Source: Candidatus Latescibacterota bacterium
Lineage (GTDB): Bacteria; Latescibacterota; UBA2968; GCA-2709665
Direction: 5' to 3'
Assembly: GCA_965116875.1 (NCBI GenBank)
Contig: OZ220733.1
Span: 2,944,001 to 3,008,000 of the forward strand
DNA length: 64,000 nucleotides
Every line of letters begins with the position of its first letter. Within the stretch, counting starts at the first letter, position 1. Both the position numbers and the translations under genes were made by a program. The notes below the pieces were generated by a model. That model was not told where the DNA came from. It was given only the letters and a program-made list of their open reading frames with translations, and did no database searches. Shown here piece after piece: positions 27,720 through 48,800 of this stretch.

Positions 27720-27825
27720 GAAAGGTCGCCGGGCCAATCAGGGTTTTCGAGTTGATTTCAATCATCCGCCGGACCGTCAGTGAGCGATACGGAGCCGATT
27801 TGTCAACAACGAGTTGTACTCGCGA

Positions 27826-27891
27826 TCGCCGCTGTTTTCGGTCGCGCGCCGACAATGCGGCAAGCCGTTTGAAGGCCGTGGGTTGGAACCG
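27826..27891 (-). repeat. Paralogous copy of cpt 3' end (spacer 2)
   Basis: TCGCCGCTGTTTTCGGTCGCGCGCCGACAATGCGGCAAGCCGTTTGAAGGCCGTGGGTTG, same block as spacers 1 and 3. Confidence 0.75.
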
Positions 27892-27943
27892 AAGGGTCCG
27901 TCGAGGACGGCGGCAAGGAACACTCGATGAGGGGTGGACACCA

Positions 27944-29122: not shown

Positions 29123-29208
29123 GTAAGGTCGCCGGGACACTCAGGGAATTCGCGTGGCCCGTTTCATTTCATTCATCCTCCTGGCTGTCAGCATGCGAGC
29201 CGCGGGCC

Positions 29209-29302
29209 GATGTGTCCACGCGAATCGGAATCGGCATCGCCGCTGTTTTCGGTCGCGCGCCGACAATGCGGCAAGCCGTTTGAAGGCCGTGGGTTGCAAC
29301 CG
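29209..29302 (-). repeat. Paralogous copy of cpt 3' end and downstream flank (spacer 3)
   Basis: GATGTGTCCACGCGAATCGGAATCGGCATCGCCGCTGTTTTCGGTC versus GATGTGTATACGCGAATCGAATTTGGCTTCGCTGCTATTTCCGGTC at 30776. Confidence 0.78.
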
Positions 29303-29354
29303 AAGGGTCCGTCGAGGACGGCGGCAAGGAACACTCGATGAGGGGAGAACACCA

Positions 29355-30533: not shown

Positions 30534-30735
30534 CCTCAATTTGAAAAATGACAACAGTCAAATCGGCCACAAGAGCCTGAATGCGGGTAGAGGGTAGACG
30601 AAATTCGGGAAGACGGTAGACGTAAGAGGTTAGAGATGACCCGCCTCGTTTGGTTTCAATTCATGCCGGAGGCATTGAGGAGAAACGAATTGGCAAAGAT
30701 TCCTTCTTCCGTCTCCCCTCTCCCGTCTTCCCGCC
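30533..30735. repeat. Right island-flank direct repeat plus heptamer-armed repeat copy 4 (core inverted)
   Basis: 30533-30591 matches 21416-21475, followed by GGTAGAG/GGTAGAC/GGAAGAC arm, core ATGCCGGAGGCA, GTCTCCC/CTCTCCC/GTCTTCC arm. Confidence 0.65.
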
Positions 30736-30809
30736 TTTTTGTTCTTTCTCCTCCCCTCTCACCAGGTGGTGGGACGATGTGTATACGCGAATCGAATTTG
30801 GCTTCGCTG

Positions 30810-31484
30810 CTATTTCCGGTCCCGCGCCGTCATTGCGGCGAGCCTTTTGAAAGCGGCGGGTTGAGGGCCGTGCTTCAAATGTATTAAAATTGCCCGGCTG
30901 CATTCCTCCGGACGCATCCTCGCGGTATCGACTTCGAGGTCATAGATTCCTGGTTTGTGCACTTCGCGGTCCCATCGATGCACGCTGTAGGGCGGCGGCG
31001 TGTCATCCGCGATTCGCTGATCCTTGAGCCATGTGTTACGCCGTCGTTCCCATACGATTTCAACAGGACAACGTACGCCAACGAACCAAACGGGCAGGCC
31101 TTCCATTCGCCGCGCACAATCGTACAGGATTCCTTGAGGAATATTGTAGTCGTCATGGTGACCGGCGTCGGTAACGACGTTTATACCCAGACGACTGTGT
31201 GCCGCAATCGACTCATACATCGCTGCATACATTGTTGGCACCAGGAGTTCGATCTTCTCTCTTTGCGCAAACGGTTCTTCTTCCATTCTCTCGATGCCGG
31301 CTGGCCGAAGCCCGACGCCCGGACGATACTGTTCGGGTGTAATGCGTATGTAACGATCTGCGCCGAGGTTCATCCACGGTTCGTCCGACGCCTCCTGGAT
31401 CGCGGTGGCAATGCTCGACTTCCCGGATCGCGGAGCGCCGTTTAGTATGATTACCTGTCCCAGCTGAGTTTCCTGTTCCATCAT
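30810..31484 (-). CDS. Chloramphenicol phosphotransferase (CPT)-like P-loop kinase
   Basis: IILNGAPRSGKSS, VWFVGVRCP, VHKPGIYDLEVDT...PEEC. Confidence 0.88.
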   Translation of the reverse strand: MMEQETQLGQVIILNGAPRSGKSSIATAIQEASDEPWMNLGADRYIRITPEQYRPGVGLRPAGIERMEEEPFAQREKIELLVPTMYAAMYESIAAHSRLGINVVTDAGHHDDYNIPQGILYDCARRMEGLPVWFVGVRCPVEIVWERRRNTWLKDQRIADDTPPPYSVHRWDREVHKPGIYDLEVDTARMRPEECSRAILIHLKHGPQPAAFKRLAAMTARDRK

Positions 31485-31705
31485 TTATCGTGCCTCGATT
31501 ATGGTCATGGAACCTGTGCTTTCAATCTCGGATAAATTATCTCCTGACTCAAAGGAACCGGCCATACGCGCTTCTTTCTTGCTCATCCACAGTTGTTGAT
31601 TAAAACGCTCCAAAATCCCACTATTCCTGCTTGACAATTCGCGTCCACTTGACGTTCTTTTGCAAGAGTTGTGTATAGAACAACCTGAACTGCCCGGAGC
31701 GTGTG

Positions 31706-31930
31706 ATGAACGGGAAATTTCTCAACAACGACAACATTCGCATGGCAATCTTGCTGTTAACCATCCTGGGTTCCTGGTGGCACCTGTCCTCTGAAATCAG
31801 CAGACAGATAGACCGTGTGGATCGAAGATTGGATTCGGTTGATCGAAAACTGGAGAGAATCGACGAACGCCTGGATTCCTTCGGAGAGCGAATTGCCGCG
31901 AACGAAACAAGACTAAGCGTAGAAAAGTAA
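31706..31930 (+). CDS. Small TM plus coiled-coil protein (paralog A)
   Basis: 74 aa, one hydrophobic helix then heptads IDRVDRRLDSVDRKLERIDERLDSFGERIAANE. Paralog at 35195. Confidence 0.75.
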   Translation: MNGKFLNNDNIRMAILLLTILGSWWHLSSEISRQIDRVDRRLDSVDRKLERIDERLDSFGERIAANETRLSVEK

Positions 31931-31947
31931 GAGCCTGAGTCCTTAGT

Positions 31948-32412
31948 CTACGTCAACAACCTGCCTGCCGGTTTGCTAAACTGGCGGGCTGAATTTTTCC
32001 TCCTTACCACCTCCACCACACCCTCCGACGGCCGCATGCGGACGGTATCGCCGGTCCGGATGGTCGCCAGCGGGTCGGGTTCGAGTTCGTGCATCAGCGC
32101 CACGTTCGCCAGAACGGCGCCCTGTACCATCACCGGATTCGTGCGTCCGAAGATGAAACCCGCCGGGCAGGTTCCCCTCTCAACCATATCCAGCATCATC
32201 CACGACGTGGCCACGCCGCCCTTGGACGTGCGGAACACGACGATTTTCGCGGAGATCGACTGCCCGTAGAGCGGATGGGTCTCCCGGCTGATCACGCCCC
32301 GGTACCGGTCATAGTCGTACCGGGCGCTGAAGCCTTCGTCGCATACCAGCGCGACCCCTTCCGCGTGGGGTCCGACACCCGGATGCCCGTGAAGAACAGT
32401 GGTCTCAGTCAT
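31948..32412 (-). CDS. Aconitase X small (swivel) subunit, DUF126
   Basis: AEGVALV...HPLYGQSISAKIVVFRTSKGG...IRTGDTVRM. Confidence 0.85.
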   Translation of the reverse strand: MTETTVLHGHPGVGPHAEGVALVCDEGFSARYDYDRYRGVISRETHPLYGQSISAKIVVFRTSKGGVATSWMMLDMVERGTCPAGFIFGRTNPVMVQGAVLANVALMHELEPDPLATIRTGDTVRMRPSEGVVEVVRRKNSARQFSKPAGRLLT

Positions 32413-35425: not shown

Positions 35426-35627
35426 AATTCCATTGCATCCATAACGTCGTCAACGGCCTGCCAGTAAGACAAACTGGCGGGCTTTTCTTGTCTCCCCTAC
35501 TTTCCCCGTAATCCTTGCCTCCATTCGTGCATTTTCTTAAAATTACATGCCCGTGGGTGTTGCGCGGGAGGCAACCCGACGCGTTGTTTTCGAAAGACGA
35601 CTGCCGTTTCTATCAACAGGTGAACCA

Positions 35628-36911
35628 ATGCAGACCGACTACGCGTTTGAGATGGGGACTTCGAATTTGCGGTTCGGACCGGGCGCGACGAGAGAAGTGG
35701 GGATGGACCTTTCCGAACTGGGCGCCAGGCGGGTGATGCTGCTGACGGACCCCAATCTCGTGGACCTGCCGCCGGTGCGGACGGCGGTCGAATCCCTCAG
35801 GAGCGAGGGGGTCGATTACGCGCTCTACGACCGCGTCCGGGTCGAGCCCACGGACGTTTCGTTTCAGGAGGCGATTGACTTCGCACATGATGGAGATTTC
35901 GACGCCTTTGTCGCCGTGGGCGGGGGCTCCTCGATCGATACGGCAAAGGCCGCGAATCTCTATTCCACCTATCCGGATGATTTCTACGCGTACGTGAACG
36001 CGCCGATCGGGAGCGGCAAACCGGTTCCCGGCGCGCTCAAGCCGCTGATCGCGATTCCAACGACCGCCGGAACCGGCAGCGAGACCACGGGCGTCACGAT
36101 ATTCGATATCTCCGCAAAACACGTCAAGACCGGTATCGCCCACCGCCGCCTGAAACCGTCGCTGGGCATTGTGGACCCCGAGAATACGCGCACCATGCCG
36201 CCGGTTGTGGCGGCCTCGACGGGGCTGGATGTGCTCTGCCACGCCCTCGAGTCCTATACCGCGATTCCGTACGATCAACGCCCGCTGCCCGAACGCCCGA
36301 TTCTCCGGCCGGCGTACCAGGGCACCAATCCGATCAGCGATATGTGGGCGCTCAGGGCCATCGAGCTGGTCGCGCAAAACATCGTGCGCGCGGTTGCGGA
36401 CCCGGACGACGACGAGGCCCGGTCGAACATGATCCTCGCGTCGAGCATGGCGGGGATGGGGTTCGGCAACGCGGGCGTTCATCTGCCCCACGGGATGTCC
36501 TATCCCGTCTCGGGGATGGTGCGGGATTACCGGCCCGAAGGGATGGTTAGCGACCATCCCATCGTACCCCATGGGATGTCGGTCTTCATGAACGCGCCGG
36601 CTTCCTTCCGGTTTACCGGACCTGCCTGCCCGGAACGCCATCTCAGGGCCGCGCAGTTGCTGGGCGCGGACATTTCCGGCGTGAAAGACCCTGAGGCGGA
36701 GGCGGGAGGCGTTCTCGCGGACCGCATCGTGGCGTTGATGAAGCGGCTGGAAATGCCCAACGGACTTTCGGCGATCGGGTTTGCGGAAGCGGACGTGCCC
36801 GCGCTGGTGGAGGGCACGCTGCCCCAGCACCGTGTGACCAAACTGTCACCGAAACCCGCCGGCAGAGAGGACCTGGAAGCGCTGTTCCGGGACGCGCTGA
36901 CTGCCTGGTAG
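35628..36911 (+). CDS. Hydroxyacid-oxoacid transhydrogenase (Fe-containing ADH family)
   Basis: DYAFEM, VRVEPTD, GGGSSIDTAK, YVNAPIG, PTTAGTGSE, RPAYQG.NPISD, GVHLPHGMSYP. Confidence 0.92.
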   Translation: MQTDYAFEMGTSNLRFGPGATREVGMDLSELGARRVMLLTDPNLVDLPPVRTAVESLRSEGVDYALYDRVRVEPTDVSFQEAIDFAHDGDFDAFVAVGGGSSIDTAKAANLYSTYPDDFYAYVNAPIGSGKPVPGALKPLIAIPTTAGTGSETTGVTIFDISAKHVKTGIAHRRLKPSLGIVDPENTRTMPPVVAASTGLDVLCHALESYTAIPYDQRPLPERPILRPAYQGTNPISDMWALRAIELVAQNIVRAVADPDDDEARSNMILASSMAGMGFGNAGVHLPHGMSYPVSGMVRDYRPEGMVSDHPIVPHGMSVFMNAPASFRFTGPACPERHLRAAQLLGADISGVKDPEAEAGGVLADRIVALMKRLEMPNGLSAIGFAEADVPALVEGTLPQHRVTKLSPKPAGREDLEALFRDALTAW

Positions 36912-36944
36912 AAGTACAGCGGACATCAGGAGGATGAGACTCGC

Positions 36945-38015
36945 ATGGCTTCGACAGGATCGTCAGAGCCACAGGTCAGTTCCGCCAGAGAACGCGGCGC
37001 TGCCGAAACTGATCATCTGCCCCCGTTCCCCGAGGGTTGGTATCTGGTAGACACGCGGCAGTCCCTTCTGCGGGAGAAATTGATCGAAAAGACCTGGATG
37101 GGAGAGGAAATCGTCGCCTGGTGCGATGAGGAGGGCCGTGTCTGCGTGGCCGACTCGATATGTCCGCACCTCGGCTCGTCCCTGGGACCGGACGTTGGCG
37201 GGAAGGTCTGCAACGGACGTCTGGTCTGTCCGTTTCACGGGTTTGAATACGATGCGACCGGCCAGTGCGTCGCGACACCGAACGCCCCGGCGCCCAGAGC
37301 GGCGAAGCTGAAGGTATACGAAACCAGGGAGATCCTCGGCCTTGTCTTCGCCTGGTTCGGGAACGGCGGCAGGCCGTCACACTGGGAACTTCCCGGCGAG
37401 CCGACCACCGGTCCCGAGTGGAGTCAATTGGGTTTCCGGCGTCTCCGCTTCCGCAGCCATCCCCAGGAAACGGCGGAGAACGCCGTGGACCTGGGACACC
37501 TGCGCTACGTGCACGGCTACGACAAGGTCAATCCGGTCGGCGCGCTAACAGTGGACGGCGCCTATCTGAAGAGTTGCTTCGACTTCAGACGCACCCGCAG
37601 TTTGCTGGGTCTGATCGATCTCGTGTATGAAATCTCCGCCGTCACCCACATCCATGGACTCGGCTACTCCTACGTTGAAATCCACGAGAAAACCATCGAT
37701 ATGCACGCGAGACTCTGGGTGCTTCCCACGCCTGTTGACGGCACCGTCATCGATCTCGTTCTGGCCGGCCAACTGATGGAATTCCGCAAGCCCGGGCGGT
37801 TCATCACGGGTCTCGGCTTCGTGCCGATGAAGCTGCGCCAACGGCTGATGAATCACATACTGCTTGGGCAGCAGAAACGGGATGTGCTGCAGGACGTGGT
37901 GATCTGGGAAAAGAAGCGGCACCGGTCGCCTCCCAGGCTGTGCCGCGCCGACGGCCCTATCGGCGCCTACCGCCGCTACTGCAGGCAGTTCTACCCGGAA
38001 AAGCATGTAACTTGA
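36945..38015 (+). CDS. Rieske non-heme oxygenase, Neverland/DAF-36/KshA (sterol) type
   Basis: FPEGWY, Rieske CPHLG...CPFHG, mononuclear Fe motif ENAVDLGHLRYVH, C-terminal DVVIWEKK...P.LC..DGPI..YRRYCRQFY. Confidence 0.85.
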   Translation: MASTGSSEPQVSSARERGAAETDHLPPFPEGWYLVDTRQSLLREKLIEKTWMGEEIVAWCDEEGRVCVADSICPHLGSSLGPDVGGKVCNGRLVCPFHGFEYDATGQCVATPNAPAPRAAKLKVYETREILGLVFAWFGNGGRPSHWELPGEPTTGPEWSQLGFRRLRFRSHPQETAENAVDLGHLRYVHGYDKVNPVGALTVDGAYLKSCFDFRRTRSLLGLIDLVYEISAVTHIHGLGYSYVEIHEKTIDMHARLWVLPTPVDGTVIDLVLAGQLMEFRKPGRFITGLGFVPMKLRQRLMNHILLGQQKRDVLQDVVIWEKKRHRSPPRLCRADGPIGAYRRYCRQFYPEKHVT

Positions 38016-38214
38016 TCGATGCGGCATCCCCCGGTAGCGGGTCGCCGGAGATCGGATCCTGGGGGAGGGGGCACAAACCTGCCTGCATCTGTCGACTGAG
38101 GAGCGATCCGTCGTTCCCCTACGCCGCCAGGGCTTCCGGTACCGTCTGCCGGACCAACTCCCCGGAGGGGTCCCGCGCCGGTAGTCCAGCCGCCTTCGGA
38201 AGTTCCGCGAAGGC

Positions 38215-38243
38215 TTGACAAGGCACCTGAAATGCTGTATCAT
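38215..38243 (+). promoter_or_regulatory. Sigma70-like promoter upstream of the P450 gene
   Basis: TTGACA-17 bp-TATCAT. Confidence 0.55.
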
Positions 38244-38465
38244 ATCGTAATATGAACAAGTTACCCACTTCCAAAGCGAGTTCGAGTCCTTCACCTTTAC
38301 TCTTGTTGATGGAGTTTAATAAATCCGCTTAATTGGGAACAAGCCGCAATTTCAAACTGAGACACCACCCAAATACCCGTGCCCTTGCAAGGGCACGCGC
38401 GAAATGTCAAAAATCGTGTTCAGAACGCTCGAAATCCTGCGAGGGAGAGGATAACTGGTTAACTG

Positions 38466-40499
38466 ATGACACGAGAAACAGCAGTTGGAACGGGCCCGGG
38501 GGCGTCCACGGTGAGTCTGCCTGAGGAGCTGCTGCTGGCGCTGCTGGACGAGGAGAGCGGTTATTTTCGTCAGGTGCCCGGCTGGAACCTGAACTGCGCC
38601 ATGACCGGCGCAGCGCTGGGTGAACTGTCGCTGCTCGGCCGTATCGACACCGATCTGGAGTCGCTGTCGCTGTTGGATGCGACCGATACGGGTCGTCCGC
38701 TGCTCGACCCGATCTTGCGGGAGATCGCCACCGAAACGGAACCACACGACGCCCGCTACTGGGTTGAAAGGCTTGCTCCACAGTCCGAGGAGATGATCCC
38801 CCAGGCGCTGGACGGGCTCGTTCGGCGACAGATTCTCGACCTCCACCCGGGCGATTTCTATACCTTCACCAAGCGCCAGCGGCAGGGCGAAACACCGCCG
38901 GAAGAAGAACACCTGGCGGGCGAGTCCGTAAAGGCCCGGCTGACCAGGATCATCTTCTCGGACGAGATTCCGGGGCCGCGTGACGTGATTATCACCGGCC
39001 TGGTCAACGCCTGCCGCGTGTTCCATCTGATGTTTCAGATCGACGAGGAAGTGGAAGAACGGATTCAGTTCGTCAGCCAGATGGACCTGATCGGCCAGGC
39101 GATTGCGGCGGCGGTGGGCCAGAGCATCGTCGCGCCCACGCTTCGGCATCCATCGCTGACCAAACCGATTCCAACCGTGTCCCTGCGTGATCTCGTGTTC
39201 AATCGAGAGCTGCGAGAGGGCAGGCTGCCGGCAGGGTTCGCCATTCTGGCCGAAAAGTACGGTCCGGTATTCGAGCTTCGGCTCCCGTTCCGCCAGAACA
39301 TGATTGTACTGGCAGGGTTGAAGACAAACGAATGGGCCCATCGCATGGGGCGGGTGTTCTTGCGGTCGAAGGAGTACTTCGAGGGCGTCGACAAAGCGTA
39401 TGGCGTGTCCCGCTCGATGCACTCGGTTGACGGTGCAGATCACTTTCGTTTTCGCAAATCGTTGCAGCCCGCCTACTCTCGCAGGACTTTGACCAGGCGT
39501 CTGGATGAGGTCTATGACCTGGCCCGCGCGCATATGGCGAGTTGGGAAGTCGACGAAACGTTCCCGGTTCAGGAGATGCTGCGGCCGTTGCTGAACGCGC
39601 AGTCATCGCCGCTCCTGGCCAGCATTGACACCCAGGGCGAGATCGTCGACGCGCTGGAATACAAGATACGGGTGCTCAATGTAGGCATCGTCAAGATTCT
39701 GCCGCGTTTCATGCTCTATACCCCGTCGATGCGCCGCCGGGCGAAGGCCATGCAAAAGATCATCGAACGCATGGAGAGGACGCATACGGCCGCGCAGCGG
39801 GCCGGGATGCATGAGGACGTGGTTGACGCGTATCTGGCCCTGAACGCGTCCGATCCCCAGTTCCTACCCGAATCGGACCTGACGCTGCCGCTGGGGGCGA
39901 TCCTGATGACCGCCATGTACATGGGCGATCAGGTTGGCTTCGCTCTTTACTGGTTGGTGCAGAATCCCGAATTGTACGAGCGCGTCACGGCTGAAGCGGA
40001 CGCGTTGTGGGCTGAGGGCGATCCCGGCGAGGAGGACTTCACTCGAGAACGGATCGACGTGACCCACCGGGTGCTGATGGAGACTTTGCGGATGTCGCCG
40101 ATCGTGGCCATGTCGATGCGGACGGTGATGAATACCAGCGTGGTGGAGGGATACGAGCTACCGGTCGGGTCGCAGCTCCTGATTGCGCAGACGGCCACGC
40201 ATTACTCGGAAGAGGCGTTTTCCGATCCGTGGACGTTCGACATTGACCGCTACCTGCCCCCGCGGAGCGAGCACCTGGGCAGAGGCTACGCGCCCTTCGG
40301 GCTCGGCACGCACTCATGTCTCGGGAGCCGCTGGGCCGAAATGCATATGGCGATCAACCTCCTGATGCTCACGCATCACTTCAAAATCGAACTGGCCCGC
40401 CCCTACAAGCGGTTGCCGATGGATCCGTTTCCCTCCCAGTCTCCCAGCAACAAACTTAAGTTCAGGCTCGCCGAGCAGCGGCACGAAATTCGTGTCTGA
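38466..40499 (+). CDS. Fusion of GPP34 (Golgi phosphoprotein 3-like) domain and cytochrome P450
   Basis: N-terminal SLPEELLLALLDEESG...GAALGELSLLGRI (GPP34 pattern). C-terminal ETLR, FDIDRY and heme motif FGLGTHSCLG. Confidence 0.85.
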   Translation: MTRETAVGTGPGASTVSLPEELLLALLDEESGYFRQVPGWNLNCAMTGAALGELSLLGRIDTDLESLSLLDATDTGRPLLDPILREIATETEPHDARYWVERLAPQSEEMIPQALDGLVRRQILDLHPGDFYTFTKRQRQGETPPEEEHLAGESVKARLTRIIFSDEIPGPRDVIITGLVNACRVFHLMFQIDEEVEERIQFVSQMDLIGQAIAAAVGQSIVAPTLRHPSLTKPIPTVSLRDLVFNRELREGRLPAGFAILAEKYGPVFELRLPFRQNMIVLAGLKTNEWAHRMGRVFLRSKEYFEGVDKAYGVSRSMHSVDGADHFRFRKSLQPAYSRRTLTRRLDEVYDLARAHMASWEVDETFPVQEMLRPLLNAQSSPLLASIDTQGEIVDALEYKIRVLNVGIVKILPRFMLYTPSMRRRAKAMQKIIERMERTHTAAQRAGMHEDVVDAYLALNASDPQFLPESDLTLPLGAILMTAMYMGDQVGFALYWLVQNPELYERVTAEADALWAEGDPGEEDFTRERIDVTHRVLMETLRMSPIVAMSMRTVMNTSVVEGYELPVGSQLLIAQTATHYSEEAFSDPWTFDIDRYLPPRSEHLGRGYAPFGLGTHSCLGSRWAEMHMAINLLMLTHHFKIELARPYKRLPMDPFPSQSPSNKLKFRLAEQRHEIRV

Positions 40500-41583
40500 G
40501 TTCGCTGCGTCCGCTCTTCCGGCGCCCGATCTGGTCTACGACTCGCGAATTGAGCCTTTCACAATGAATTCATCTGGCGGCGGACGACCTCACACCGTAC
40601 GGGTGATCACGGGGGCGAGCGGGCAGATCGGTGGGGTGTTGGCGCGGGCTCTCGCCGACAAGTACGGGCCCCGTCAGGTTCGTGCGATCTTTCGGAAGCG
40701 TCGAGGGACGGCGGCGGATCTCGACGTCGCATGGGTCAAGGGCGACATTCTCAGCAAGCAATCGCTGATCGCCGCCTTCGCGGGCGCGGAGACTGTGTTC
40801 CATTTGGCCGCGTTGGTCTCGATCGGTACCGTCAGGGCACAGGAATTCCATCGCACGAATGTCCTGGGCACCCGCAACGTCGTGGAAGCGGCCCTCGAAT
40901 GTGGGGTGAGACGTCTGGTTCATGTCTCCTCGATCCACGCTTACGACCCGTTCCCGCTGGACGAAGTGCTTGACGAGAGTCGCCGCCCCGCGGACAGCCC
41001 GCGCGACGCGCCGTACGACCGTTCGAAAGCCGCCGGCGAAGCGGAGGTCCGGCGCGGTATCGACCGCGGTCTGGACGCCGTAATCCTGAATCCAACCAGC
41101 GTGATCGGCCCCTATGACGGCGCCCCGTCGCCTATGGGGCAGTTTTTTCTCGACCTCCACCGCAGGCGTCTTCCCGCACTGATCGCGTCTGGCTACGACT
41201 GGGTTGACGTGCGCGACGTCGTGGCGGCCACGATGGCCGCCGAGACACAGGCGAGACGTGGCGAGAACTACATCGTCTCAGGTCACTGGCACACCGTCCG
41301 CGAACTGGCGGAGCTGTCTCAGCAGGCGACCGGGGTAGCCGCACCTCGCCTCCAGTTCCCGATGTTCGCCGCCCGGTTATGGGCGCCCTGCCAGGTCGTC
41401 CTGGATCGGTGTCGCGGACGTCGTCCTCTCTACACGCCGGTGTCCGTCCGCGTCATGGCCCATGGCAATCGGCGGATATCAAGCGCCAGGGCGAAGGCGA
41501 AACTCGGGTTCCACCCGCGCCCGCTCGCCGAATCGGTCAGGGACACGTACCGCTGGTTCGACGAACACGGCATGCTGGATTAA
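40492..41583 (+). CDS. Extended SDR, 3-beta-HSD/HpnA/dihydroflavonol-reductase-like
   Basis: TGASGQIG, VFHLAA, TNVLGTRNV, YDRSK (YxxxK), NPTSVIGPYD. Overlaps the P450 stop. Start uncertain (could be 40564). Confidence 0.85.
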   Translation: MSEFAASALPAPDLVYDSRIEPFTMNSSGGGRPHTVRVITGASGQIGGVLARALADKYGPRQVRAIFRKRRGTAADLDVAWVKGDILSKQSLIAAFAGAETVFHLAALVSIGTVRAQEFHRTNVLGTRNVVEAALECGVRRLVHVSSIHAYDPFPLDEVLDESRRPADSPRDAPYDRSKAAGEAEVRRGIDRGLDAVILNPTSVIGPYDGAPSPMGQFFLDLHRRRLPALIASGYDWVDVRDVVAATMAAETQARRGENYIVSGHWHTVRELAELSQQATGVAAPRLQFPMFAARLWAPCQVVLDRCRGRRPLYTPVSVRVMAHGNRRISSARAKAKLGFHPRPLAESVRDTYRWFDEHGMLD

Positions 41584-41668
41584 CAGTCCGTTGGAAAAGT
41601 CGCTCTGCAGGCCTGCCGGTGAAGTCTTGGCAGGCAGGTAGCCCGGATGGACTTTTTCAACGGGCTGT
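41583..41668. mobile_element. Short MITE-like element, relative of 7774-7935
   Basis: ACAGTCCGTTGGAAAAGTCGCTCTGCAGGC...CCGGATGGACTTTTTCAACGGGCTGT. Confidence 0.65.
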
Positions 41669-41681
41669 AAAGGTGCGTGAG

Positions 41682-42443
41682 ATGATCGAAGAGCGTCTGC
41701 ACGGGATGCTGATATGGGCTGTCGTCGCGTTGGCGCCTGTGACGTTCCTGTACCTTCTCCGCAGGCCCGCGCCCTACGGGCGCCACTACGCGGGCGCGGG
41801 CTGGGGGCCCCACGTCTCCGCCAGGCTCGCATGGATCATCATGGAACTGCCGGCGCCCGCCGCCTTCCTCGTCGTCTATCTCAACGGCAAGGGCGCTTTC
41901 CAGATCGTGCCGCTGCTGTTCCTGGTCATGTGGCAGGGCCACTATCTGAATCGGACGTTCGTCTATCCGTTTCGTGTCCGGGCATGCGGTCGGAAGACGC
42001 CCCTTCTGCTGGTCGGATCCGGCTTTCTCTTCAATGCGATCAACGCGTACCTCAACGCCCGCTTCATCTCGGAATTCGGCGAGTACGGCACTGAATGGCT
42101 AGCCGACCCCCGCTTCCTGGTCGGCGTTGGGATATTCCTCGCCGGGCTCGCGCTCAATCTCCACGCCGACAACACGCTTATGCGCCTGCGTCAACCCGGC
42201 GAGACTGGCTATGCGATACCGCAGGGCGGCGGGTTCCGCTTCGTCTCGTGTCCGAACTACCTGGGGGAAATCCTCGAATGGGCGGGCTGGGCGGTGGCGA
42301 CCTGGTCGTCGTGCGGCTTTGCATTCATGCTGTTCGCATTCGCCAATCTCGCCCCGAGGGCGTGGAGCAACCACCGATGGTATCGAGAGACGTTCAGCGA
42401 TTATCCGGCACATCGCAGGGCCCTGATACCGGGCATCTGCTGA
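41682..42443 (+). CDS. 3-oxo-5-alpha-steroid 4-dehydrogenase (steroid 5-alpha-reductase, SRD5A-like)
   Basis: APYGRH, AWIIMELP, HYLNRTFVYP, LRQPGETGYAIPQGGGFRFVSCPNYLGEILEW, NLAPRA...HRWY...DYP..RRALIP. Confidence 0.92.
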   Translation: MIEERLHGMLIWAVVALAPVTFLYLLRRPAPYGRHYAGAGWGPHVSARLAWIIMELPAPAAFLVVYLNGKGAFQIVPLLFLVMWQGHYLNRTFVYPFRVRACGRKTPLLLVGSGFLFNAINAYLNARFISEFGEYGTEWLADPRFLVGVGIFLAGLALNLHADNTLMRLRQPGETGYAIPQGGGFRFVSCPNYLGEILEWAGWAVATWSSCGFAFMLFAFANLAPRAWSNHRWYRETFSDYPAHRRALIPGIC

Positions 42444-42576
42444 CGCCTGAGCAATCCCGCGCGCCAGACGGCGCCCGTGATCCTCTGAATTGGCCAACGC
42501 GCCTTGAGTTGAAGCCGGCAGACGGCGGCGTTCGCTGAGAGCGATGTGCAGCGCGTCCGAATGGCGCCCGTTTACG

Positions 42577-45500
42577 TTACCGGACGGGAACCAGATGCAG
42601 ACGGATGGCGTAAAGCGCGGGGACGATCATCAGCAGGATTGACGTGGCGATGAGGATTCCGAAGCCCAGCGACGCGGCGAACGGGACGAGGAACTGGGCC
42701 TGAATGGCGCGTTCCAGGATGAGTGGAAAGAAGCCGAGGAAAGTCGTCAATGAAGTGAGCATAATCGGCCGAAATCGTCCCTTTGCGCCTTCGATGATCG
42801 CGGTTCGCACAGGGGTGCCTTCCTCGAGTTTCTGATCGATGAAATCGATCATCACCAGGGAATCGTTCACAACCACGCCGCTCAGACCGAAGACGCCCAT
42901 GAAGGAAACGGCGCTCAGTGCCAGCCCCAGGACCCAGTGGCCCAGGATCACGCCGATCAGACCGAACGGAATGACCGCCATGATGATGAACGGTTTGGTG
43001 TAGGACCGCAGCGGGATGGCAAGCAGCGCGAAAATCAGGAGCAGGGCAATCGCAAACCCGCGGAACAGCGCGTCGAGGGACTCGAGCTGCTGTTGCTGCT
43101 CCCCGCCAAAGGTGTACGCCAGGTCCGGGTACAGGGCGGTCAATTCCGCGAGGATCGAACTGGCGAGGATATTGTTGGCTTCGTCGCCGCTGATTACCGC
43201 CGCGTCCACGTCAGCCGTGACCGTGACCACCCGCTGTCCGTCTTTCCGCCGGATGGCAGGCGGCGACCTTCCTGAATTCATGGTGGCAACGCTGGTCACC
43301 GGCACCTCCGCTCCGCTCGGGGTACGGATCAGGTACCCTTCGATATCTGTAATGGAATTCCGCTCATCGCCGGGCAGTCGTACGTAGACCCGGACTTCTT
43401 CCCGTCCTCGCTGCACACGGACCGCTTCCTCTCCGAAAAACGCGGCGCGCGCCTGTCCGGCCAACCCCTCAAGCGTGAGACCGAGGGTCTGCGCTTCCGG
43501 CCGCAGCTGGAGCTGGACTTCCGGAACGCCCGGGGTGTGATCCGAACGTATATCGTGGACGCCTCCGATGCCGCGGAGCCCTTCGACCACGGCGTCTGCG
43601 ATCCCCAGGAGGCGCTCAGGATGCGGATGAGACAGCACGGCCTCCACGGGGTTGCCGAAGTCGATGACCTCGCCGCTGTAGGTGATACCGCGCACGTAGG
43701 GCAGCACCCCCACCTCCTCTCGCCACGCCTGCACGAAATCCACGGTGGAGATCTCTCGTTGCTGCGCGCCCAGGAGTTTGAATTCGATGGTGGCGATATT
43801 GGCTTCCGGATTCAGGGTTGGCGCGGGGTTCAGTCCGCCGCCCTGGACCCGCGGCCGCTGCCCGACGGTCACGATAACGCCGGAAAGCAGCGGCGGCGCA
43901 TCCGCGGCGCGGTCGCGAGAGAGGCGTTCGATGACCCGGTGTCCGGCGTCCTCCAGTTCCCGCGCCGCCTGGTACGTCCTGGGAGCGGTCGTACCGTCCG
44001 GCATCTCCAGAGTGACCGTGGCGAAGTCCCCTTCGACTTCGGCCGCCAGGGTCGTCGGGATGATGCCGGTTCTCACCAGAGAGAAACTCAGCACGAGCAT
44101 TCCCACCGCCCCCGCCATTGTCACCCAGGGCTGGTCGGCCGCGAACTGCAATGCCCGGTCCAGGGGGCCCTGCACGAACCGGTTCAGCAGCACATCCACC
44201 CGTCCCTGTACCCGTGCGAAGAACCGGTCGAAGGCATTTGCCGGCGCCCATTCCGGGCCGTGCATGTGCGACAGGTGGTTTGGCAGGATCAGCAGCGATT
44301 CGACCAGGGAAACCAGAAGGATGGAGATCATGATGATCGGCAGCGCCCGCCAGGACTCACCGATGCCGCCCGGGATGAACAGCAGCGGCACGAAGGCGAC
44401 CACCGTCGTGAGGACCGCGAATATCAGCGGCACCTTTATGCGCCGCGCGCCCCGGATCGCAGCCTGAACCCCGGGGGTTCCACGCTTGCGTTCGCTCTGG
44501 ATGAGTTCGGACACGACAATGGCGTCGTCAACGACGATTCCTATGGCGAGGACGAACGAGAACAGGCTTTGCGCGTTGATCGCAACGTCGAGTACCAGCA
44601 TCACCGCCAGGGCGCCGATACCCGAGACCGCAAGGCCGACGGCGACCCACATGGCAAGCCGGATCTGGAGAAACAGGCTGAGCGAGACCAGCACCAGCAG
44701 AAGGCCCAGTATGCCGTTCTTCAGGAGGATCTCGGTACGTTCCTTGAAGTCCTGTGACTCGTCGTTCCATATCGTGACGCCCACGCCGTCCGGCAGTGCC
44801 GGAATCACCTCGTCCGCCAGGTGCTCCCGCACGGCCGTGGCGACTTCCATCACGTGCTCGCCGTCGGCCCGGAAGACCTCCACGAATACAGCGGGATGGT
44901 TCTGATGCCGGACAATCAGGTCGGCTTCCTGAAAGCCGTCGCGGACTTCGGCGATATCGCCAACGCGCAGAACCGTGCCATCGCTGTTGCTGAGGAGGAT
45001 GATTTCCTCGAAGTCCTGCTGGTCGTAGTTCTGACCCAGAGTCCGGACCCTCACCTGAGATTCCCGTGTATCGATACTTCCTGCAGACAGGTCCAGAGAA
45101 CTGCGGCGAATCGTGTTGGCGACATCGTTGAGTGTCAGCCCCAGTGACCTGAGTCGATGAAGCGGCACCTCGATGGAAATCTCGTAATTCCTGACGCCGC
45201 TGACCTCCACCTGGGACACGGAGGAAAGCGTCTTGAGCTCGTCCTCGATCTGGTACGCCAATTCCTTCAGCGAGCGTTCCGGCACGTCGCCGTAGACAAT
45301 GAGCCGCATCATGCTCTGGCGATTGGTCATCTCCCAGAACAGGGGACGTTCGGCGCCGCCGGGGAAGGTCTGTATACGATTGACCGCAGACTCGATATCG
45401 TCCAGGGCCCGCGCCATGTCCGTCCCGGAATCCATCTGGATTCTCACGGACGCGATCCCCGGCGCCGCCACCGACTTGACCGCCTTCACGTCGTCCAGTC

Positions 45501-45750
45501 CGCTGACCCGGTCCTCGATCTTGACAACGATCGACTCCTCCACCTCCTCAGGCGTAGCCCCGGGATAGGCCATCGAGACTTCAATGTGATAGAAGGGGAC
45601 CGTAGGCCACGCTTCCCGCTCCAGGCCGGTCAGCGAAACCAGACCGAACGCGATAATTGCCCACATCAACAGATTGGCCGCAATGCCGTTGTCGGCCATG
45701 TAGGCGATCGGCCCGGGCCGTTCGCCGTGGCTGTGTCCGTTTGTGCTCAT
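42577..45750 (-). CDS. RND efflux permease (AcrB/D/F family)
   Basis: YPGATPEEVE, GIVVDDAIVV, VVNDSLVM, RFRPIMLTSLTT. Confidence 0.93.
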   Translation of the reverse strand: MSTNGHSHGERPGPIAYMADNGIAANLLMWAIIAFGLVSLTGLEREAWPTVPFYHIEVSMAYPGATPEEVEESIVVKIEDRVSGLDDVKAVKSVAAPGIASVRIQMDSGTDMARALDDIESAVNRIQTFPGGAERPLFWEMTNRQSMMRLIVYGDVPERSLKELAYQIEDELKTLSSVSQVEVSGVRNYEISIEVPLHRLRSLGLTLNDVANTIRRSSLDLSAGSIDTRESQVRVRTLGQNYDQQDFEEIILLSNSDGTVLRVGDIAEVRDGFQEADLIVRHQNHPAVFVEVFRADGEHVMEVATAVREHLADEVIPALPDGVGVTIWNDESQDFKERTEILLKNGILGLLLVLVSLSLFLQIRLAMWVAVGLAVSGIGALAVMLVLDVAINAQSLFSFVLAIGIVVDDAIVVSELIQSERKRGTPGVQAAIRGARRIKVPLIFAVLTTVVAFVPLLFIPGGIGESWRALPIIMISILLVSLVESLLILPNHLSHMHGPEWAPANAFDRFFARVQGRVDVLLNRFVQGPLDRALQFAADQPWVTMAGAVGMLVLSFSLVRTGIIPTTLAAEVEGDFATVTLEMPDGTTAPRTYQAARELEDAGHRVIERLSRDRAADAPPLLSGVIVTVGQRPRVQGGGLNPAPTLNPEANIATIEFKLLGAQQREISTVDFVQAWREEVGVLPYVRGITYSGEVIDFGNPVEAVLSHPHPERLLGIADAVVEGLRGIGGVHDIRSDHTPGVPEVQLQLRPEAQTLGLTLEGLAGQARAAFFGEEAVRVQRGREEVRVYVRLPGDERNSITDIEGYLIRTPSGAEVPVTSVATMNSGRSPPAIRRKDGQRVVTVTADVDAAVISGDEANNILASSILAELTALYPDLAYTFGGEQQQQLESLDALFRGFAIALLLIFALLAIPLRSYTKPFIIMAVIPFGLIGVILGHWVLGLALSAVSFMGVFGLSGVVVNDSLVMIDFIDQKLEEGTPVRTAIIEGAKGRFRPIMLTSLTTFLGFFPLILERAIQAQFLVPFAASLGFGILIATSILLMIVPALYAIRLHLVPVR

Positions 45751-46958
45751 GGCGACTCGTCCGTCTCCGTCTGGACGGACATTCCCTCCGTGGCGAACTG
45801 GATCCCGCCGGTGATTACCGCCTGACCGTGTACCAGCGTACCTGTCACGTACACTTCATCGTTGGCGCGCTGCAATACCCGGACCGGAACGATGTTCACA
45901 ACGCCGCCTTTCACCATCCAGATCTCGTTTCCGGGTCTCAGTGATGCCCGCGGTACTTTGAAATAGCCCTCCAGCGCCAGGCCATCGATTTTCACCCGGA
46001 CGAATCCGCCTACCAATAACGGTGGATTGCCACCCGGACTGCCGATTCCATTCGACGCAACGCCCGCGGAAAACGGATCCGGAACGCGCACGATGACGTT
46101 GATGGTGCGTGATTGCTCGTCCAGGGCCGCCTCGGCCCGATCCACGAAACCTTCCCATTCATAATTCGCATCGCCGTACCGGGCAACCACCCGGGCGGCC
46201 GCGCCACGATTCCAGTCACCGGCCTTCAGACGCCACAGGTCCGGGATCAGGGCCGCGTCGCTTTCGGGCAGGGGTACGACCACTTCCACCGCATCGGAGG
46301 CGAAGAGCCGTCCCACCGGCTGGCCGGGATTGACGACCTGACCCACGTCCACGGTTTCCTCGCGCACACGGCCGTTGAAAGGCGCGGTTATCCTGGTTCT
46401 GGACAGGGCGAGCCTGGCGTCGGCAAGCCTGGCCTCGTCGCGACTCAGCGCGGCGGTTGCCGCGTTCAACTGGGGCTCTCTCAGCGTGAGAGGACTCGTA
46501 TCGGAAGGCGACGCCGGATTTCCCTTCTGTCCCGCATAAGACTCATACTGCGAGCGGGCAATCGACGCCTGTTCCTGTTCCCGGAGCAACGCCACCCGGC
46601 TGGCCGCGAGAATGGCCTCCGCTTCCTGCACCCTGAACCGATAGTGGACCTCTTCGATTCGGAACAGGCGCTGTCCGGCCGTCACCCGGCCCCCGCTCTT
46701 GAATCCCGGATCCACCCAGACCACCCGGCCGCCCACTTGAGGAACGATATCGACCTCCGCGCCGGGCCGAACGGTACCGGAACCGAATACCGGTATGGGC
46801 CCGGATCCGGCCGCAACCCGACCCGTCTGCACGAACGGTATCTGGGGAGGCTGTTCGATCCGCGTCGGTTCGGGCGACAGTAACCCCAGAAGGGCAGCCA
46901 GACCCACTGAAAACACGACAATGGCGACGGAAATCAGAATGCTGGATGTACGGGACAT
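45747..46958 (-). CDS. RND periplasmic adaptor (MFP)
   Basis: IVPQVGGRV, TRITAPFNGRV, VDVGQVVNPG, VPRASLR. Confidence 0.92.
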   Translation of the reverse strand: MSRTSSILISVAIVVFSVGLAALLGLLSPEPTRIEQPPQIPFVQTGRVAAGSGPIPVFGSGTVRPGAEVDIVPQVGGRVVWVDPGFKSGGRVTAGQRLFRIEEVHYRFRVQEAEAILAASRVALLREQEQASIARSQYESYAGQKGNPASPSDTSPLTLREPQLNAATAALSRDEARLADARLALSRTRITAPFNGRVREETVDVGQVVNPGQPVGRLFASDAVEVVVPLPESDAALIPDLWRLKAGDWNRGAAARVVARYGDANYEWEGFVDRAEAALDEQSRTINVIVRVPDPFSAGVASNGIGSPGGNPPLLVGGFVRVKIDGLALEGYFKVPRASLRPGNEIWMVKGGVVNIVPVRVLQRANDEVYVTGTLVHGQAVITGGIQFATEGMSVQTETDESP

Positions 46959-46964
46959 GACGAT

Positions 46965-48494
46965 CTACTCCATCGGTGGTCGGGAGATGCTCCCCCCCGG
47001 CGGTTCCTGGCCGAAGGCCTGGCGGGCGTCGGGGGTCCACGCGCCGCCCAGCGCCCGGTGAAGGGCAAGCCGGGCAAGACCCAGATCGCGTTCCGCCGTC
47101 GAGAGTAAGGACAGCGCGGTCAACCGCATCTGCATTGCGGAAAGCAAAGCCTCATAGTCGACCACACCCGAAACGTACCGCTGTTCCTGCAGCAATTCCT
47201 CCGCTTGAGCCGCATTCGATCGAGCCGTCAGCAGCGAATGGCGCCGGCGGCTGGCCTCCAGCCCGGCAAGGGCGGCTTCAACCTCGTTGACGGCGGTGAT
47301 CACGGATCTCCCGTAGGCCGCGACGGCGCCTTTCAGTCCGGCTTTCGCAAGCGCAAGATTACCGCGAAGCCGGGTTCCCTGGAATACGGGTCCCAGCAGG
47401 TTCATGCTCAGATTCCGGAACCATTGCTCCGGGTTGAACCACTCGCTCGACTCCGTACTCTGCAGCCCGATGGATCCGTGAAGGGACAGTCTCGGCGCCA
47501 GGTCCGCGCGGCGGGCGCCAACCTGGAATCGGGCCGCTTCCATCCGCTGCCTCGCCGCGATAACGTCCGGACGCTGCATCAGCATACGGGTTGGAATACC
47601 CGGTGGAACGGGCTGAAGGTCGCCGTCGCCGGCCGGGGAATCGGACATCAACCGCGCGAGGTCCACACGGTGGTCTCCCATAAGCACCCGGAGCCGGCCC
47701 TCGGCATTGGCCAGCAGCGCTTCGATCTGCGGGAGTCCGGCCTGTGCGCCGCGCGCATCCTGCCGCGCCCTGAGGAGGACGCTCACGTCGGTCAGCCCGC
47801 GGTCGTAGCGGGACTCGGCCAGCGACTCTCGTTGTCCGGACACCTCCGCCATATCGGATGCCAGCGTCCGTTGCCGGCGCAGGTTGACGATTTCAAGGTA
47901 GGTCCGGACGGTTTCGGCCAGAACGCCCATCCTGGCCGTCATATAGTCCGCCTCGGATGCAAGGCGCTCGGCGCCCGCGGCCAGACCGTCGTTCCGGTTC
48001 CTGCCCCAGAAATCCAGTTCGTAGGCGAACTCCACACCGGCCGTGTAGGTCGTCAGCCCGAGTCGTTCCGGGAGCGTGATTCCCGGCACGCCGGCTGCTC
48101 CCGAACCGACTCCCAGTTCGTCCAGCTGGGCGCCGATTCCCGCGTTGGTGGGCGCGTCGAACTCGTTGACGCCGGCTGTTGGCTGAATGGATGGAAAAAG
48201 GGGCGCCCTGGCGATACGTGCCCGCGCTCTTGCCTGTTCGACGCGAGCGACCGCGGCGGCCAGGTCGAAGTTCGATGCCAGCACGCCCTCGATGATCCTG
48301 TTCAGGGCCGGGTCGGCGAACGTCTTCCACCATTCCCGCCGCTGGATGGAACCGGCGGACTCATTTCCGTCGGATTCGTCGTTCAGCGCCACGACCGATT
48401 CGGCGACCGGCGGCGCTGAACGCGGCGCCAGGGTGCAGCCGGAGACGAGAAAGCCGAGAAAAGCGGTTGTCAGTGGTTTCAGCGAATGAGACAT
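46965..48494 (-). CDS. Outer-membrane efflux lipoprotein (NodT/TolC family)
   Basis: Lipobox LVSGC, WWKTFADPAL, YELDFWGR, RPDVIAA, LHRALGGAW. Confidence 0.92.
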   Translation of the reverse strand: MSHSLKPLTTAFLGFLVSGCTLAPRSAPPVAESVVALNDESDGNESAGSIQRREWWKTFADPALNRIIEGVLASNFDLAAAVARVEQARARARIARAPLFPSIQPTAGVNEFDAPTNAGIGAQLDELGVGSGAAGVPGITLPERLGLTTYTAGVEFAYELDFWGRNRNDGLAAGAERLASEADYMTARMGVLAETVRTYLEIVNLRRQRTLASDMAEVSGQRESLAESRYDRGLTDVSVLLRARQDARGAQAGLPQIEALLANAEGRLRVLMGDHRVDLARLMSDSPAGDGDLQPVPPGIPTRMLMQRPDVIAARQRMEAARFQVGARRADLAPRLSLHGSIGLQSTESSEWFNPEQWFRNLSMNLLGPVFQGTRLRGNLALAKAGLKGAVAAYGRSVITAVNEVEAALAGLEASRRRHSLLTARSNAAQAEELLQEQRYVSGVVDYEALLSAMQMRLTALSLLSTAERDLGLARLALHRALGGAWTPDARQAFGQEPPGGSISRPPME

Positions 48495-48800
48495 GCCGGT
48501 GAACCGAAGCCAATCGACCCGGCGCTTCGGGAGGCGCCACGTCGTTTTCTGAACGTCCAGTCGAGCTTCGCGATGAAACAGTCCCGGCGGCAATGCCATG
48601 CGAGACCGCAACTTTCCATACGAAAATCTGCCCATCTTGTCAAATTAAAAATCGGATTCGGGGTCCCCATAGGCCGTCTTCCGGAGCGTGCCAGGGCGAG
48701 CCTTTTTCCTTGAATTAGTCGTTGCCAATCGTGGGTTTTCTTCATACCTTGCCGGGCCTGTACCTCGTTTTTCTCCATTTCCATGGGAGGGTAGGACGTT

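Follow-up and report, generated by a model that had tools for sequence, protein, structure and literature searches.

What a cytochrome P450 fused to a GPP34 domain might do beside a steroid 5-alpha-reductase homologue, in a bacterium whose genome shows no sterol cyclase, is the question raised by a stretch of the Candidatus Latescibacterota bacterium assembly GCA_965116875.1 (contig OZ220733.1, positions 2,944,001 to 3,008,000 of the forward strand; these 64,000 nucleotides are referred to below as the window). At positions 36945-42443 of the window, a sequence-only reading had pointed out four co-oriented genes, encoding a Rieske oxygenase, the GPP34-P450 fusion, a short-chain dehydrogenase/reductase (SDR), and a 5-alpha-reductase of the SRD5A family, and both the list of open reading frames (ORFs) and the Pfam domains agree with the families claimed (coordinates in Table 1). 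Having compared this locus with its relatives, we lean toward the view that the cassette is a horizontally shared sterol-tailoring set of sponge-associated bacteria, which would remodel exogenous, probably host, sterols.

The sequence-only reading had let its case hang on whether these genes occur together elsewhere, and they do so in dozens of loci from other phyla, which argues against a chance grouping. We confirmed the fusion at 532 loci in species-representative genomes and compared the best 80 of these, counting neighbors by tblastn and a Rieske homologue wherever one lay within 8 kb of the P450 gene; individual loci are given below as L numbers. In their records, the 80 loci carry the labels Latescibacterota, Acidobacteriota (Bryobacterales), Alpha- and Gammaproteobacteria, Gemmatimonadota, Rhodothermota, Chloroflexota (Dehalococcoidia), and Nitrospirota. 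Thirty-five loci with six phylum labels make up clade A, defined by a P450 at least 72% identical to that of the window. Here, the P450 gene is directly followed by an SDR gene at 25 loci and an SRD5A gene at 20, counted from 60% identity upward; at five of the 35, the sequence stops within 1.3 kb of the P450 gene and cannot show either. Rieske homologues are present at 13 and MMPL transporter genes at 10 of the clade-A loci. Clade B, comprising 38 loci below 60% identity, has no cassette-type SDR or SRD5A but combines the P450 with a Rieske homologue (33 loci), a sterol methyltransferase (SMT; 32), an MMPL transporter (24), and a flavin amine-oxidase-type protein (19), while the intermediate group (60-72% identity, seven loci) shows an MMPL gene at two loci and a Rieske homologue at one. 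Two ORF clusters, c12 and c13, proved to be antisense shadow ORFs opposite the Rieske and SDR genes and were excluded.

What these neighbors have in common can be read from their domains. By Pfam, the clade-B SMT consists of CMAS and Sterol_MT_C domains, and the MMPL transporter carries sterol-sensing and Patched domains. At L006 and L008, the P450-SDR-SRD5A triad lies 3 to 5 kb from an SMT gene and from a fusion of a monooxygenase with an oxidosqualene cyclase (OSC; TIGR03463, 724 bits). This ORF of at least 1088 amino acids (L008:14762-18028, minus strand, and likewise in L006; cut by the end of the locus) has a UbiH-like FAD monooxygenase as its N-terminal part, fused to a 2,3-oxidosqualene cyclase; it lies right beside the SMT gene and is likely a squalene-epoxidase/cyclase fusion. 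Together, SMTs, sterol-sensing-domain transporters, and OSC as neighbors in related loci reinforce the link to sterols. Two Dehalococcoidia loci (L024 and L027) have a distant SDR (29-30% identity) and SRD5A (39%) on the opposite flank of a clade-A P450 gene, so the association of the three families persists without orthology. Judged from gene content, the P450 fusion is the constant element, and its partners are interchangeable enzyme sets whose characterized relatives act on sterols. On a Bryobacterales chromosome (L007:4556-7218), we also noticed a 337-amino-acid P450 fragment, a Rieske gene, and a 116-amino-acid methyltransferase fragment directly upstream of an intact clade-A triad; these pieces look like the remains of a clade-B module.

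The relatedness of the cassette genes does not follow that of their carriers. When the window's genome is set against eight from other lineages, P450 identity is 74-87%, as opposed to 62-68% for RecA (P450 and RecA, respectively: L007, 86-87% and 62%; L006, 85-86% and 66%; L012, 85% and 64%; L013, 83-84% and 68%; L015, 83% and 64%; L020, 80-81% and 64%; L021, 80% and 63%; L028, 74% and 64%). The corresponding values are 92% and 98% for the close relative L003, and 55% and 67% for the clade-B locus L045. At the DNA level, the 3' part of the window's SDR gene together with the SRD5A gene is 91% identical to a Bryobacterales locus (L004). In a 77-row tree, one 26-row clade (support 99) covers six phylum labels, and the Latescibacterota label requires at least three changes. 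Among 168 genomes of the bacterium's own phylum, 49 have the fusion (E up to 1e-100), representing 7 of 49 genera, and 13 have SRD5A, from two genera, with 10 of these 13 also being fusion-positive. By these comparisons, the cassette is apparently shared horizontally among sponge-associated bacteria. A broken rve-family transposase, split into two ORFs (L008:6573-7913), lies directly upstream of the GPP34-P450 gene of L008 and hints at how the cassette may move. Carriage on plasmids was considered and rejected: the only plasmid match to the fusion was a plain P450 at 28% identity, and the two plasmid matches to SRD5A (36-45% identity) had no fusion nearby.

Turning to the individual enzymes, the SRD5A homologue is assigned to the SRD5A1/2 type by its match to PF02544 and by full-length similarity to solved members of the family rather than to enoyl reductases: it scores 276 bits (E 2e-81) against the bacterial PbSRD5A (7C83) and 156 bits against human SRD5A2 (7BW1), versus 43 bits against enoyl-CoA reductase, in a set of comparisons without an SRD5A3 structure. 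The crystallized PbSRD5A reduces progesterone in vitro (PMC7815742). The alignment extends through the C-terminal half, which binds NADPH, and the catalytic Glu and Tyr are conserved in it. The longest ORF starts at 41379, overlapping the SDR gene; we took the later start given in Table 1, since residue 12 of that version is where similarity to solved SRD5A structures sets in. No other Steroid_dh gene occurs in the genome. Genus relatives do possess a different SRD5A paralogue, 59% identical and about 20 kb from the P450 gene (L100:8679-9437), which the window's genome lacks. This stand-alone paralogue (L100 and L101) was set aside; it has no sterol-type neighbors.

The SDR had been called similar to 3-beta-hydroxysteroid dehydrogenase (3-beta-HSD), a description on which the profile scores are divided. 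The Pfam 3Beta_HSD domain is well above its cut-off of 22 bits, but the match covers 188 of 280 positions, and Epimerase scores higher; moreover, the protein is no nearer to 3-beta-HSD or SdmB than to HpnA, the NCBIfam models of HpnA (207.2 bits, cut-off 368) and SdmB (200 bits, cut-off 600) both staying below threshold. Its best solved relative is a putative oxidoreductase (3WJ7, 142 bits), with NSDHL (6JKG) reaching 41 bits. In the alignment, the Rossmann GxxGxxG reads TGASGQIGG and the catalytic YxxxK reads YDRSK, both of which are generic SDR features. The overlap of the P450 and SDR genes, also remarked upon earlier, amounts to 8 nucleotides but exists only with a GTG start at 40492, for which homologues offer no support: matches to protein families and PDB entries set in at residue 33-38 of the longest ORF, and the homologous ORFs in L006, L008, and L013 begin 43-65 nucleotides past the P450 stop codon, which makes the ATG listed in Table 1 the likelier start. 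Taking SDR and SRD5A together, an A-ring route from 3-hydroxy-delta-5 through 3-oxo-delta-4 to 5-alpha would be the best-supported step of the proposed pathway. As a lead, the same logic of converting a delta-5-3-beta-ol via a 3-oxo-delta-4 intermediate to a saturated stanol is found in the early brassinosteroid/stanol route of plants, where C-3 oxidation by a P450 is followed by 5-alpha-reduction by DET2, and in the gut-bacterial cholesterol-to-coprostanol route, the reductase being of the SRD5A family or related to it, although the organisms and enzyme lineages differ.

The Rieske oxygenase, by comparison, belongs to the cassette only loosely. In its alignment with KshA it shows the CxH..CxxH and DxxHxxxxH motifs of the KshA/Neverland/SdmA group and it has the matching domains (PF00355 and, of KshA_C type, PF19298); its best solved relative is KshA itself (4QDC, 80 bits), aligned over the N-terminal half and a short C-terminal block. 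Against the SdmA model it reaches 34.8 bits (cut-off 600), and orthology to one characterized member, KshA or SdmA, is not apparent. The idea that it might act like Neverland and make delta-7 sterols found no support in these comparisons with KshA and SdmA. No second Rieske/KshA_C copy exists in the genome (tblastn, 1e-8). The SdmA/SdmB pair, which carries out C-4 demethylation in Methylococcus, resembles the present genes in uniting a Rieske protein and an extended SDR on the sterol A ring; here, however, both 600-bit cut-offs are missed, and the two proteins part company: of the two, clade B retains only the Rieske homologue, and most clade-A loci retain only the SDR.

The constant partner, the fusion, carries an N-terminal GPP34 domain (PF05719; residues 18-218, approximately 38517-39119) and a C-terminal P450 domain (PF00067; residues 258-658, approximately 39237-40439) in one polypeptide, and both domains are found in all 120 homologues among the matches listed (72-100% identity). 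The P450 half is canonical around the heme: the Cys loop FGLGTHSCLG and the ExxR motif are present, and G612, H616, and C618 of the loop as well as E539 and R542 are invariant across 45 aligned sequences. In contrast, the I-helix lacks the acid-alcohol pair of the (A/G)Gx(D/E)T motif and reads TAMYMGD; in the window and in clades A and B the pattern is [ST][AS]xY[ML]GD, with Met-Tyr at the position of acid and Thr, whereas more distant GPP34-P450 fusions retain AGx(D/E)T. A Tyr in this place (residue 485 of the fusion) suggests that the P450 chemistry may be unusual. The best solved relative of the domain is Methylococcus CYP51 (88 bits, 23% identity), whose AGHHTS aligns with TAMYMG, so the close relationship and the I-helix His-Thr expected of a CYP51 are both missing. 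An AlphaFold2 model of the fusion (pLDDT 88.9, pTM 0.84) gave 6MCW as its top fold match (TMt 0.83), almost level with P450 BM3; we did not use the fold search for subfamily assignment, as CYP51, BM3, and CYP184 were tied and the GPP34 half was not separately resolved. Elsewhere in the genome there is a short GPP34-only gene (G000:C1:1679788-1680387, plus strand; 338-amino-acid frame; GPP34, 161 bits).

A sponge-symbiont setting had been suggested from the start, and a run labeled sponge metagenome indeed holds 21 contigs at least 99% identical to the window stretch; runs X5-X18, with less than 0.2 of the sampled words, were left out of this habitat inference. Relatives of the fusion occur in sponge-associated bacteria of seven phylum labels, in keeping with the published distribution of its family, while exclusivity to sponges is the claim of PMC11706023. 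Two sponge metatranscriptome runs from a single study contain 268 and 494 contigs with at least 85% identity, concentrated on the P450 gene, with fewer on SDR and SRD5A; one RNA contig crosses the P450/SDR junction of a relative. Expression of GPP34 genes has been described for 45 of 107 Aplysina metagenome-assembled genomes (MAGs) (PMC11706023).

Might the cassette instead provide late steps, such as C-14 or C-4 reactions, of de novo sterol synthesis by the bacteria themselves? The window had been seen to lack a cyclase gene, and this absence extends to the whole genome, which consists of one 5.45-Mb contig with 97.7% completeness: a profile search found no SQHop_cyclase_N (PF13249), only a 25-bit match to PF13243 in a 289-amino-acid frame, no squalene epoxidase (PF08491), and, in a search that had no positive control, no ERG4/ERG24 (PF01222). 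The combination of OSC and squalene epoxidase, in the cluster or in the genome, that marks de novo sterol synthesis is thus wanting. A genome without a cyclase makes a tailoring role more likely than a biosynthetic one and, since the bacterium would be unable to cyclize squalene or oxidosqualene, a 3-oxygenated sterol of exogenous origin is the expected substrate, the sponge host or its diet being the most likely source. The genome does have an SMT gene (G000:C1:2841355-2842365, minus strand; Sterol_MT_C, 79 bits), standing alone about 100 kb before the window among unrelated neighbors (a heparinase-like protein, a helicase, and a GFO/IDH oxidoreductase). Because a cyclase-free genome keeps, conserves, and apparently transcribes SDR and SRD5A along with an SMT, modification of exogenous sterols is the simplest explanation. 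The original proposal of a modifying rather than catabolic pathway therefore stands insofar as tailoring is favored over biosynthesis; its delta-7 products find no support.

The carrier genomes speak to the same alternative. Cyclase matches occur in 42 of 79 other carriers and fall into two score classes: one of approximately 370-400 bits, read as squalene-hopene cyclase (SHC), in 23 or more genomes, and one of approximately 147-165 bits in long frames, read as OSC, in 19 of 79, of which one member was confirmed with a cyclase-specific model and most of the others are accompanied by long open frames of 1064-1672 amino acids. Among the 25 genomes with the P450-SDR pair, 6 have an OSC-class match, 2 an SHC-class match only, and 17 no cyclase match, the latter including the single-contig genome of the window and several records titled "chromosome." A role in de novo synthesis would fit the OSC-class carriers, the triad near SMT and the monooxygenase-OSC fusion at L006 and L008, the CYP51 kinship of the P450, the 200 bits of the SDR on SdmB, and the published de novo operons of sponge MAGs, such as ERG24-CYP51-LSS in Ircinia (PMC9531527). 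For cyclase-less genomes it would have to regard the cassette as a leftover, or let it act on intermediates released by neighboring symbionts. However, the genes do not look like relics, being intact, 80-90% conserved, and present in RNA contigs; the scores fall far short of the SdmA and SdmB equivalog cut-offs, only one OSC-class match was checked with a cyclase-specific model, and 17 of the 25 genomes with the pair are without a cyclase match. We regard this explanation as unlikely.

A second alternative takes its cue from the genes that face the cassette. Convergent with the Rieske, P450, SDR, and SRD5A genes lies a tripartite RND pump, whose permease reaches 428 bits on the NCBIfam model RND_permease_2, under the cut-off, and is accompanied by an adaptor gene in related loci. 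The cassette could accordingly be imagined as a resistance device, its enzymes inactivating a toxic steroid or terpenoid of the host or of neighboring organisms and the pump expelling it. RND homologues do recur beside the P450 gene at 11 of 35 clade-A and 6 of 38 clade-B loci, with 66-91% identity across phyla, and resistance genes typically spread among phyla that share a habitat. But the pump is absent from most loci, the sister cassette contains a biosynthetic-type SMT, and no drug-efflux-type regulator was noticed in the cassette, regulators not having been the target of a search. A resistance function, which overlaps with sterol tailoring, seems improbable to us.

The substrate might also be a polycyclic or isoprenoid lipid other than a sterol, for instance a hopanoid-type triterpenoid or a polyprenol. 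This possibility is brought up by a third clade of fusions from the bacterium's own phylum (L090-L099; 33-38% identity; e.g., L091:8024-11188 and L095:6853-10067), which keeps the canonical I-helix AGx(D/E)T. At 8 of the 10 loci the next gene encodes a sulfotransferase, and a ninth, L094, has two sulfotransferase-like genes instead (the Pfam scan of these sulfotransferases covered two cluster members and one of the L094 pair); genes for a PhyH dioxygenase and an inositol-monophosphatase-family protein are found near third-clade loci. This clade is compatible with a family-wide role to "oxidize and decorate a lipid," with nothing specific to sterols. Several third-clade matches are interrupted by one in-frame TAG or TGA (e.g., G224:C13:3348739-3350718 and G170:C1:2988103-2990079) and may be pseudogenes or reflect sequencing errors. 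A non-sterol substrate would also suit the 207 bits of the SDR on HpnA, a hopanoid-associated epimerase, the SHC-like high-scoring class in 23 or more carrier genomes, and the inclusion of polyprenol and enoyl reductases in the SRD5A family. Against it, SRD5A scores 276 bits with a progesterone reductase as opposed to 43 with an enoyl reductase, Sterol_MT_C and sterol-sensing domains adjoin the sister clade, and the window's own genome is without SHC. In addition, SHC products lack the 3-oxygen needed for 3-HSD/5-alpha-reductase chemistry. We consider the chances of this alternative to be slim.

In the published reading, the GPP34 domain binds phosphatidylinositol 4-phosphate (PI4P) of the host, such that the fusion would be an effector that blocks phagosome maturation and its neighbor genes would be incidental. 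The Pfam match to GPP34 (98 bits) and the reports that the fusion is exclusive to sponge symbionts and that it is expressed (PMC11706023) are in line with this. The neighborhood is nonetheless conserved across phyla and includes SRD5A, an integral membrane enzyme, while a P450 needs heme and an electron donor. Similarity of the GPP34 domain to human GOLPH3 is limited to E 0.14, which is too weak to decide on PI4P binding; in that weak alignment, the position of GOLPH3 R90, which we take to be the PI4P-binding Arg, is occupied by Thr. Residues 1-14 of the fusion are polar and modeled with low confidence, and no hydrophobic signal-like stretch is seen at the N-terminus, a statement made without a signal-peptide tool. 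We think the effector role very improbable and, given the conserved sterol-type neighborhood, argue for a metabolic one. Finally, a steroid catabolic pathway with KshA-like ring opening is hardly credible: the Rieske protein has KshA as its best solved relative and sponges are covered by a published metagenome survey of steroid catabolism (PMC5790920), but the KshA_C-type gene is the only one in the genome by tblastn, no ring-cleavage, side-chain beta-oxidation, or KshB-type gene is found in the cassette or in the recurrent clusters of the 80 loci (kstD and hsa not having been searched genome-wide), and 5-alpha reduction and C-24 methylation are non-catabolic steps.

Returning to sterol tailoring, we picture the following sequence of events. 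The sterol would reside in the cytoplasmic membrane, where it would be oxidized by the soluble P450, with the GPP34 domain either holding the P450 at the membrane or feeding it its lipid. The SDR would interconvert 3-hydroxy and 3-oxo forms in the manner of its 3-beta-HSD, SdmB, and HpnA relatives, and the seven-helix SRD5A would then use NADPH to reduce the 3-oxo-delta-4 intermediate to the 5-alpha product. Further oxidation may be added by the Rieske oxygenase, and the adjacent RND pump may carry substrate or product through the envelope. The overall result would be 5-alpha-saturated and oxidized sterols. The sister version of the cassette would use an SMT and a sterol-sensing-domain transporter in place of SDR and SRD5A.

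Several observations weigh against this scheme. We infer both its substrate and the order of its steps. In all 22 aligned SRD5A homologues, cassette-type and paralogous alike (L004-L044; window 41700-41720 region, around MELPAP), the Gln of the Q-E-Y motif is replaced by Met, although this motif is described as essential and Q56A and Q56L abolish the activity of human SRD5A2 (PMC7815742). The nearest relatives, L003 and L016 (11114-11178), furthermore have no SRD5A gene in this place: absent there are exactly the approximately 977 nucleotides that hold it between the SDR and RND genes (window 41579-42554). The SDR scores alike on hopanoid-associated HpnA and on SdmB, below cut-off in both cases, and the Rieske protein appears far from SdmA. 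The likeness of the P450 to CYP51 is weak at 23% identity, and its fold match is a near tie with the fatty-acid hydroxylase BM3. No ferredoxin or reductase partner was seen beside the cassette, a genome-wide search for one not having been made. The third clade adjoins sulfotransferases and no sterol-specific neighbor. The absence of cyclases from draft MAGs is weak evidence and firm only for single-contig genomes. Lastly, contig depths cannot rank expression, and carry-over of DNA into the RNA libraries is possible.

Table 1. Features of the cassette and the adjoining pump, in window positions
Feature	Position	Strand	Evidence
Rieske non-heme iron oxygenase, KshA_C type, 356 amino acids	36945..38015	+	Pfam Rieske 60.8 bits, KshA_C 79.8 bits
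Sigma-70-like promoter site	38215..38243	+	TTGACA, 17 nucleotides, TATCAT; pattern match only
GPP34-cytochrome P450 fusion, 677 amino acids, single ORF	38466..40499	+	Pfam GPP34 98.4 bits, p450 119.8 bits
Extended SDR, HpnA/SdmB-like	40492..41583 (longest ORF); probable start ATG 40564	+	Epimerase 114.9 bits, 3Beta_HSD 75.8 bits
SRD5A1/2-type 3-oxo-steroid 5-alpha-reductase homologue, 253 amino acids	41682..42443	+	Steroid_dh 164.6 bits
RND (AcrB-type) efflux permease	42577..45750	-	ACR_tran 546.6 bits
Periplasmic adaptor (membrane-fusion protein) of RND pump	45747..46958	-	TIGR01730 RND_mfp 154.5 bits, cut-off 94.9
Outer-membrane channel (NodT/OEP type) of RND pump	46965..48635	-	TIGR01845 outer_NodT 251.8 bits, cut-off 210; Pfam OEP 141 bits

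Rieske and P450 genes are separated by 450 bp. The promoter-like site in this gap matches the sigma-70 consensus at 11 of 12 positions and is the sole such site in 36700-42700, where 1.5 would be expected from the shuffle mean, so there is no enrichment. No RNA contig of the two RNA runs falls on 38143-38378, which the DNA runs do cover. A riboswitch or leader in the gap was rejected, as no Rfam family matched 37900-38600 at E up to 1. We likewise rejected the iron-containing alcohol dehydrogenase gene at 35547-36911, 33 nucleotides upstream of the Rieske gene, as a cassette member: it is kept only in the nearest relatives L003 and L016, and we treat it as a lineage-specific neighbor. Most of this gene has no RNA-contig cover, which is evidence neither way. 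Farther upstream, window positions 22000-32000 have a G+C content of 0.51-0.53, as opposed to 0.60-0.64 around them, and a positive GC skew.

How much of this is new? The fusion itself is known: according to Ferreira et al. (Microbiome 2025, PMC11706023), 656 of 663 long GPP34 proteins combine GPP34 with a P450, and this GPP34_L family is described as occurring only in sponge symbionts of many phyla, forming one clade, being expressed, and acting as a PI4P-binding anti-phagocytosis factor. In architecture and distribution, the window's protein is alike and belongs to this family. Flanking genes are described there just for the short GPP34 genes of two actinobacterial groups, with a nearby P450, and the main text makes no mention of sterol, steroid, cholesterol, methyltransferase, MMPL, efflux, or dehydrogenase; the supplements, including flank figure S11, are outside this statement. 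De novo sterol clusters of sponge symbionts are also in print, as are their SMT/sdmAB clusters and functional SMTs (PMC9531527, PMC10070321). These clusters resemble the cassette in being conserved sets of sterol enzymes spread horizontally across sponge-symbiont phyla, and they have a DFR-like SDR and SMTs among their neighbors, genes of the sort that the L006 and L008 triads adjoin. They differ in being built around OSC, whereas the cassette is without a cyclase and 17 of its 25 carrier genomes have none at all. We found neither GPP34-P450 nor SRD5A named in these cluster descriptions, and the main text of PMC10070321, supplements aside, uses neither the word "P450" nor the word "Rieske." The SRD5A homologue, for its part, matches PbSRD5A and human SRD5A2 over its full length but differs from both by the Met in place of the QEY Gln (PMC7815742). 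The claim of an undescribed system accordingly has to be narrowed: fusion and sterol clusters have been published, while the cassette and its sterol reading were not found in print. We found no paper that joins GPP34-P450 to sterol genes, or names SRD5A, in sponge symbionts, though supplements may list these neighbors.

Who makes the sterols of sponges is an open question, which bears on the debate about 24-isopropylcholestane as a "sponge biomarker" (PMC10070321). If our interpretation is correct, symbionts without a sterol pathway would still edit sterols, by means of a cyclase-independent, apparently transcribed cassette traded among at least six phylum labels in one habitat. One may tentatively go further and propose, as a possibility on which we would place rather limited confidence, that symbionts perform, on host sterols, part of the unusual sterol chemistry that has long been attributed to sponges (5-alpha-stanols, extra side-chain methylation, possibly sulfated sterols) through horizontally traded and exchangeable modules on a GPP34-P450 scaffold, namely, SDR with SRD5A, SMT with sterol-sensing transporter and Rieske oxygenase, or sulfotransferase. 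GPP34 would then be a lipid/sterol-handling or membrane-docking module and not a PI4P effector, and the Tyr of the I-helix would point to an atypical P450 reaction in the sterol-linked clades. Biocatalytic interest may lie in a bacterial 5-alpha-reductase variant with Met-Glu-Tyr for QEY and in a P450 lineage without the acid-alcohol pair. For the GPP34-P450 family, a metabolic role would offer a directly testable alternative for a fusion so far explained solely as a host-evasion factor.

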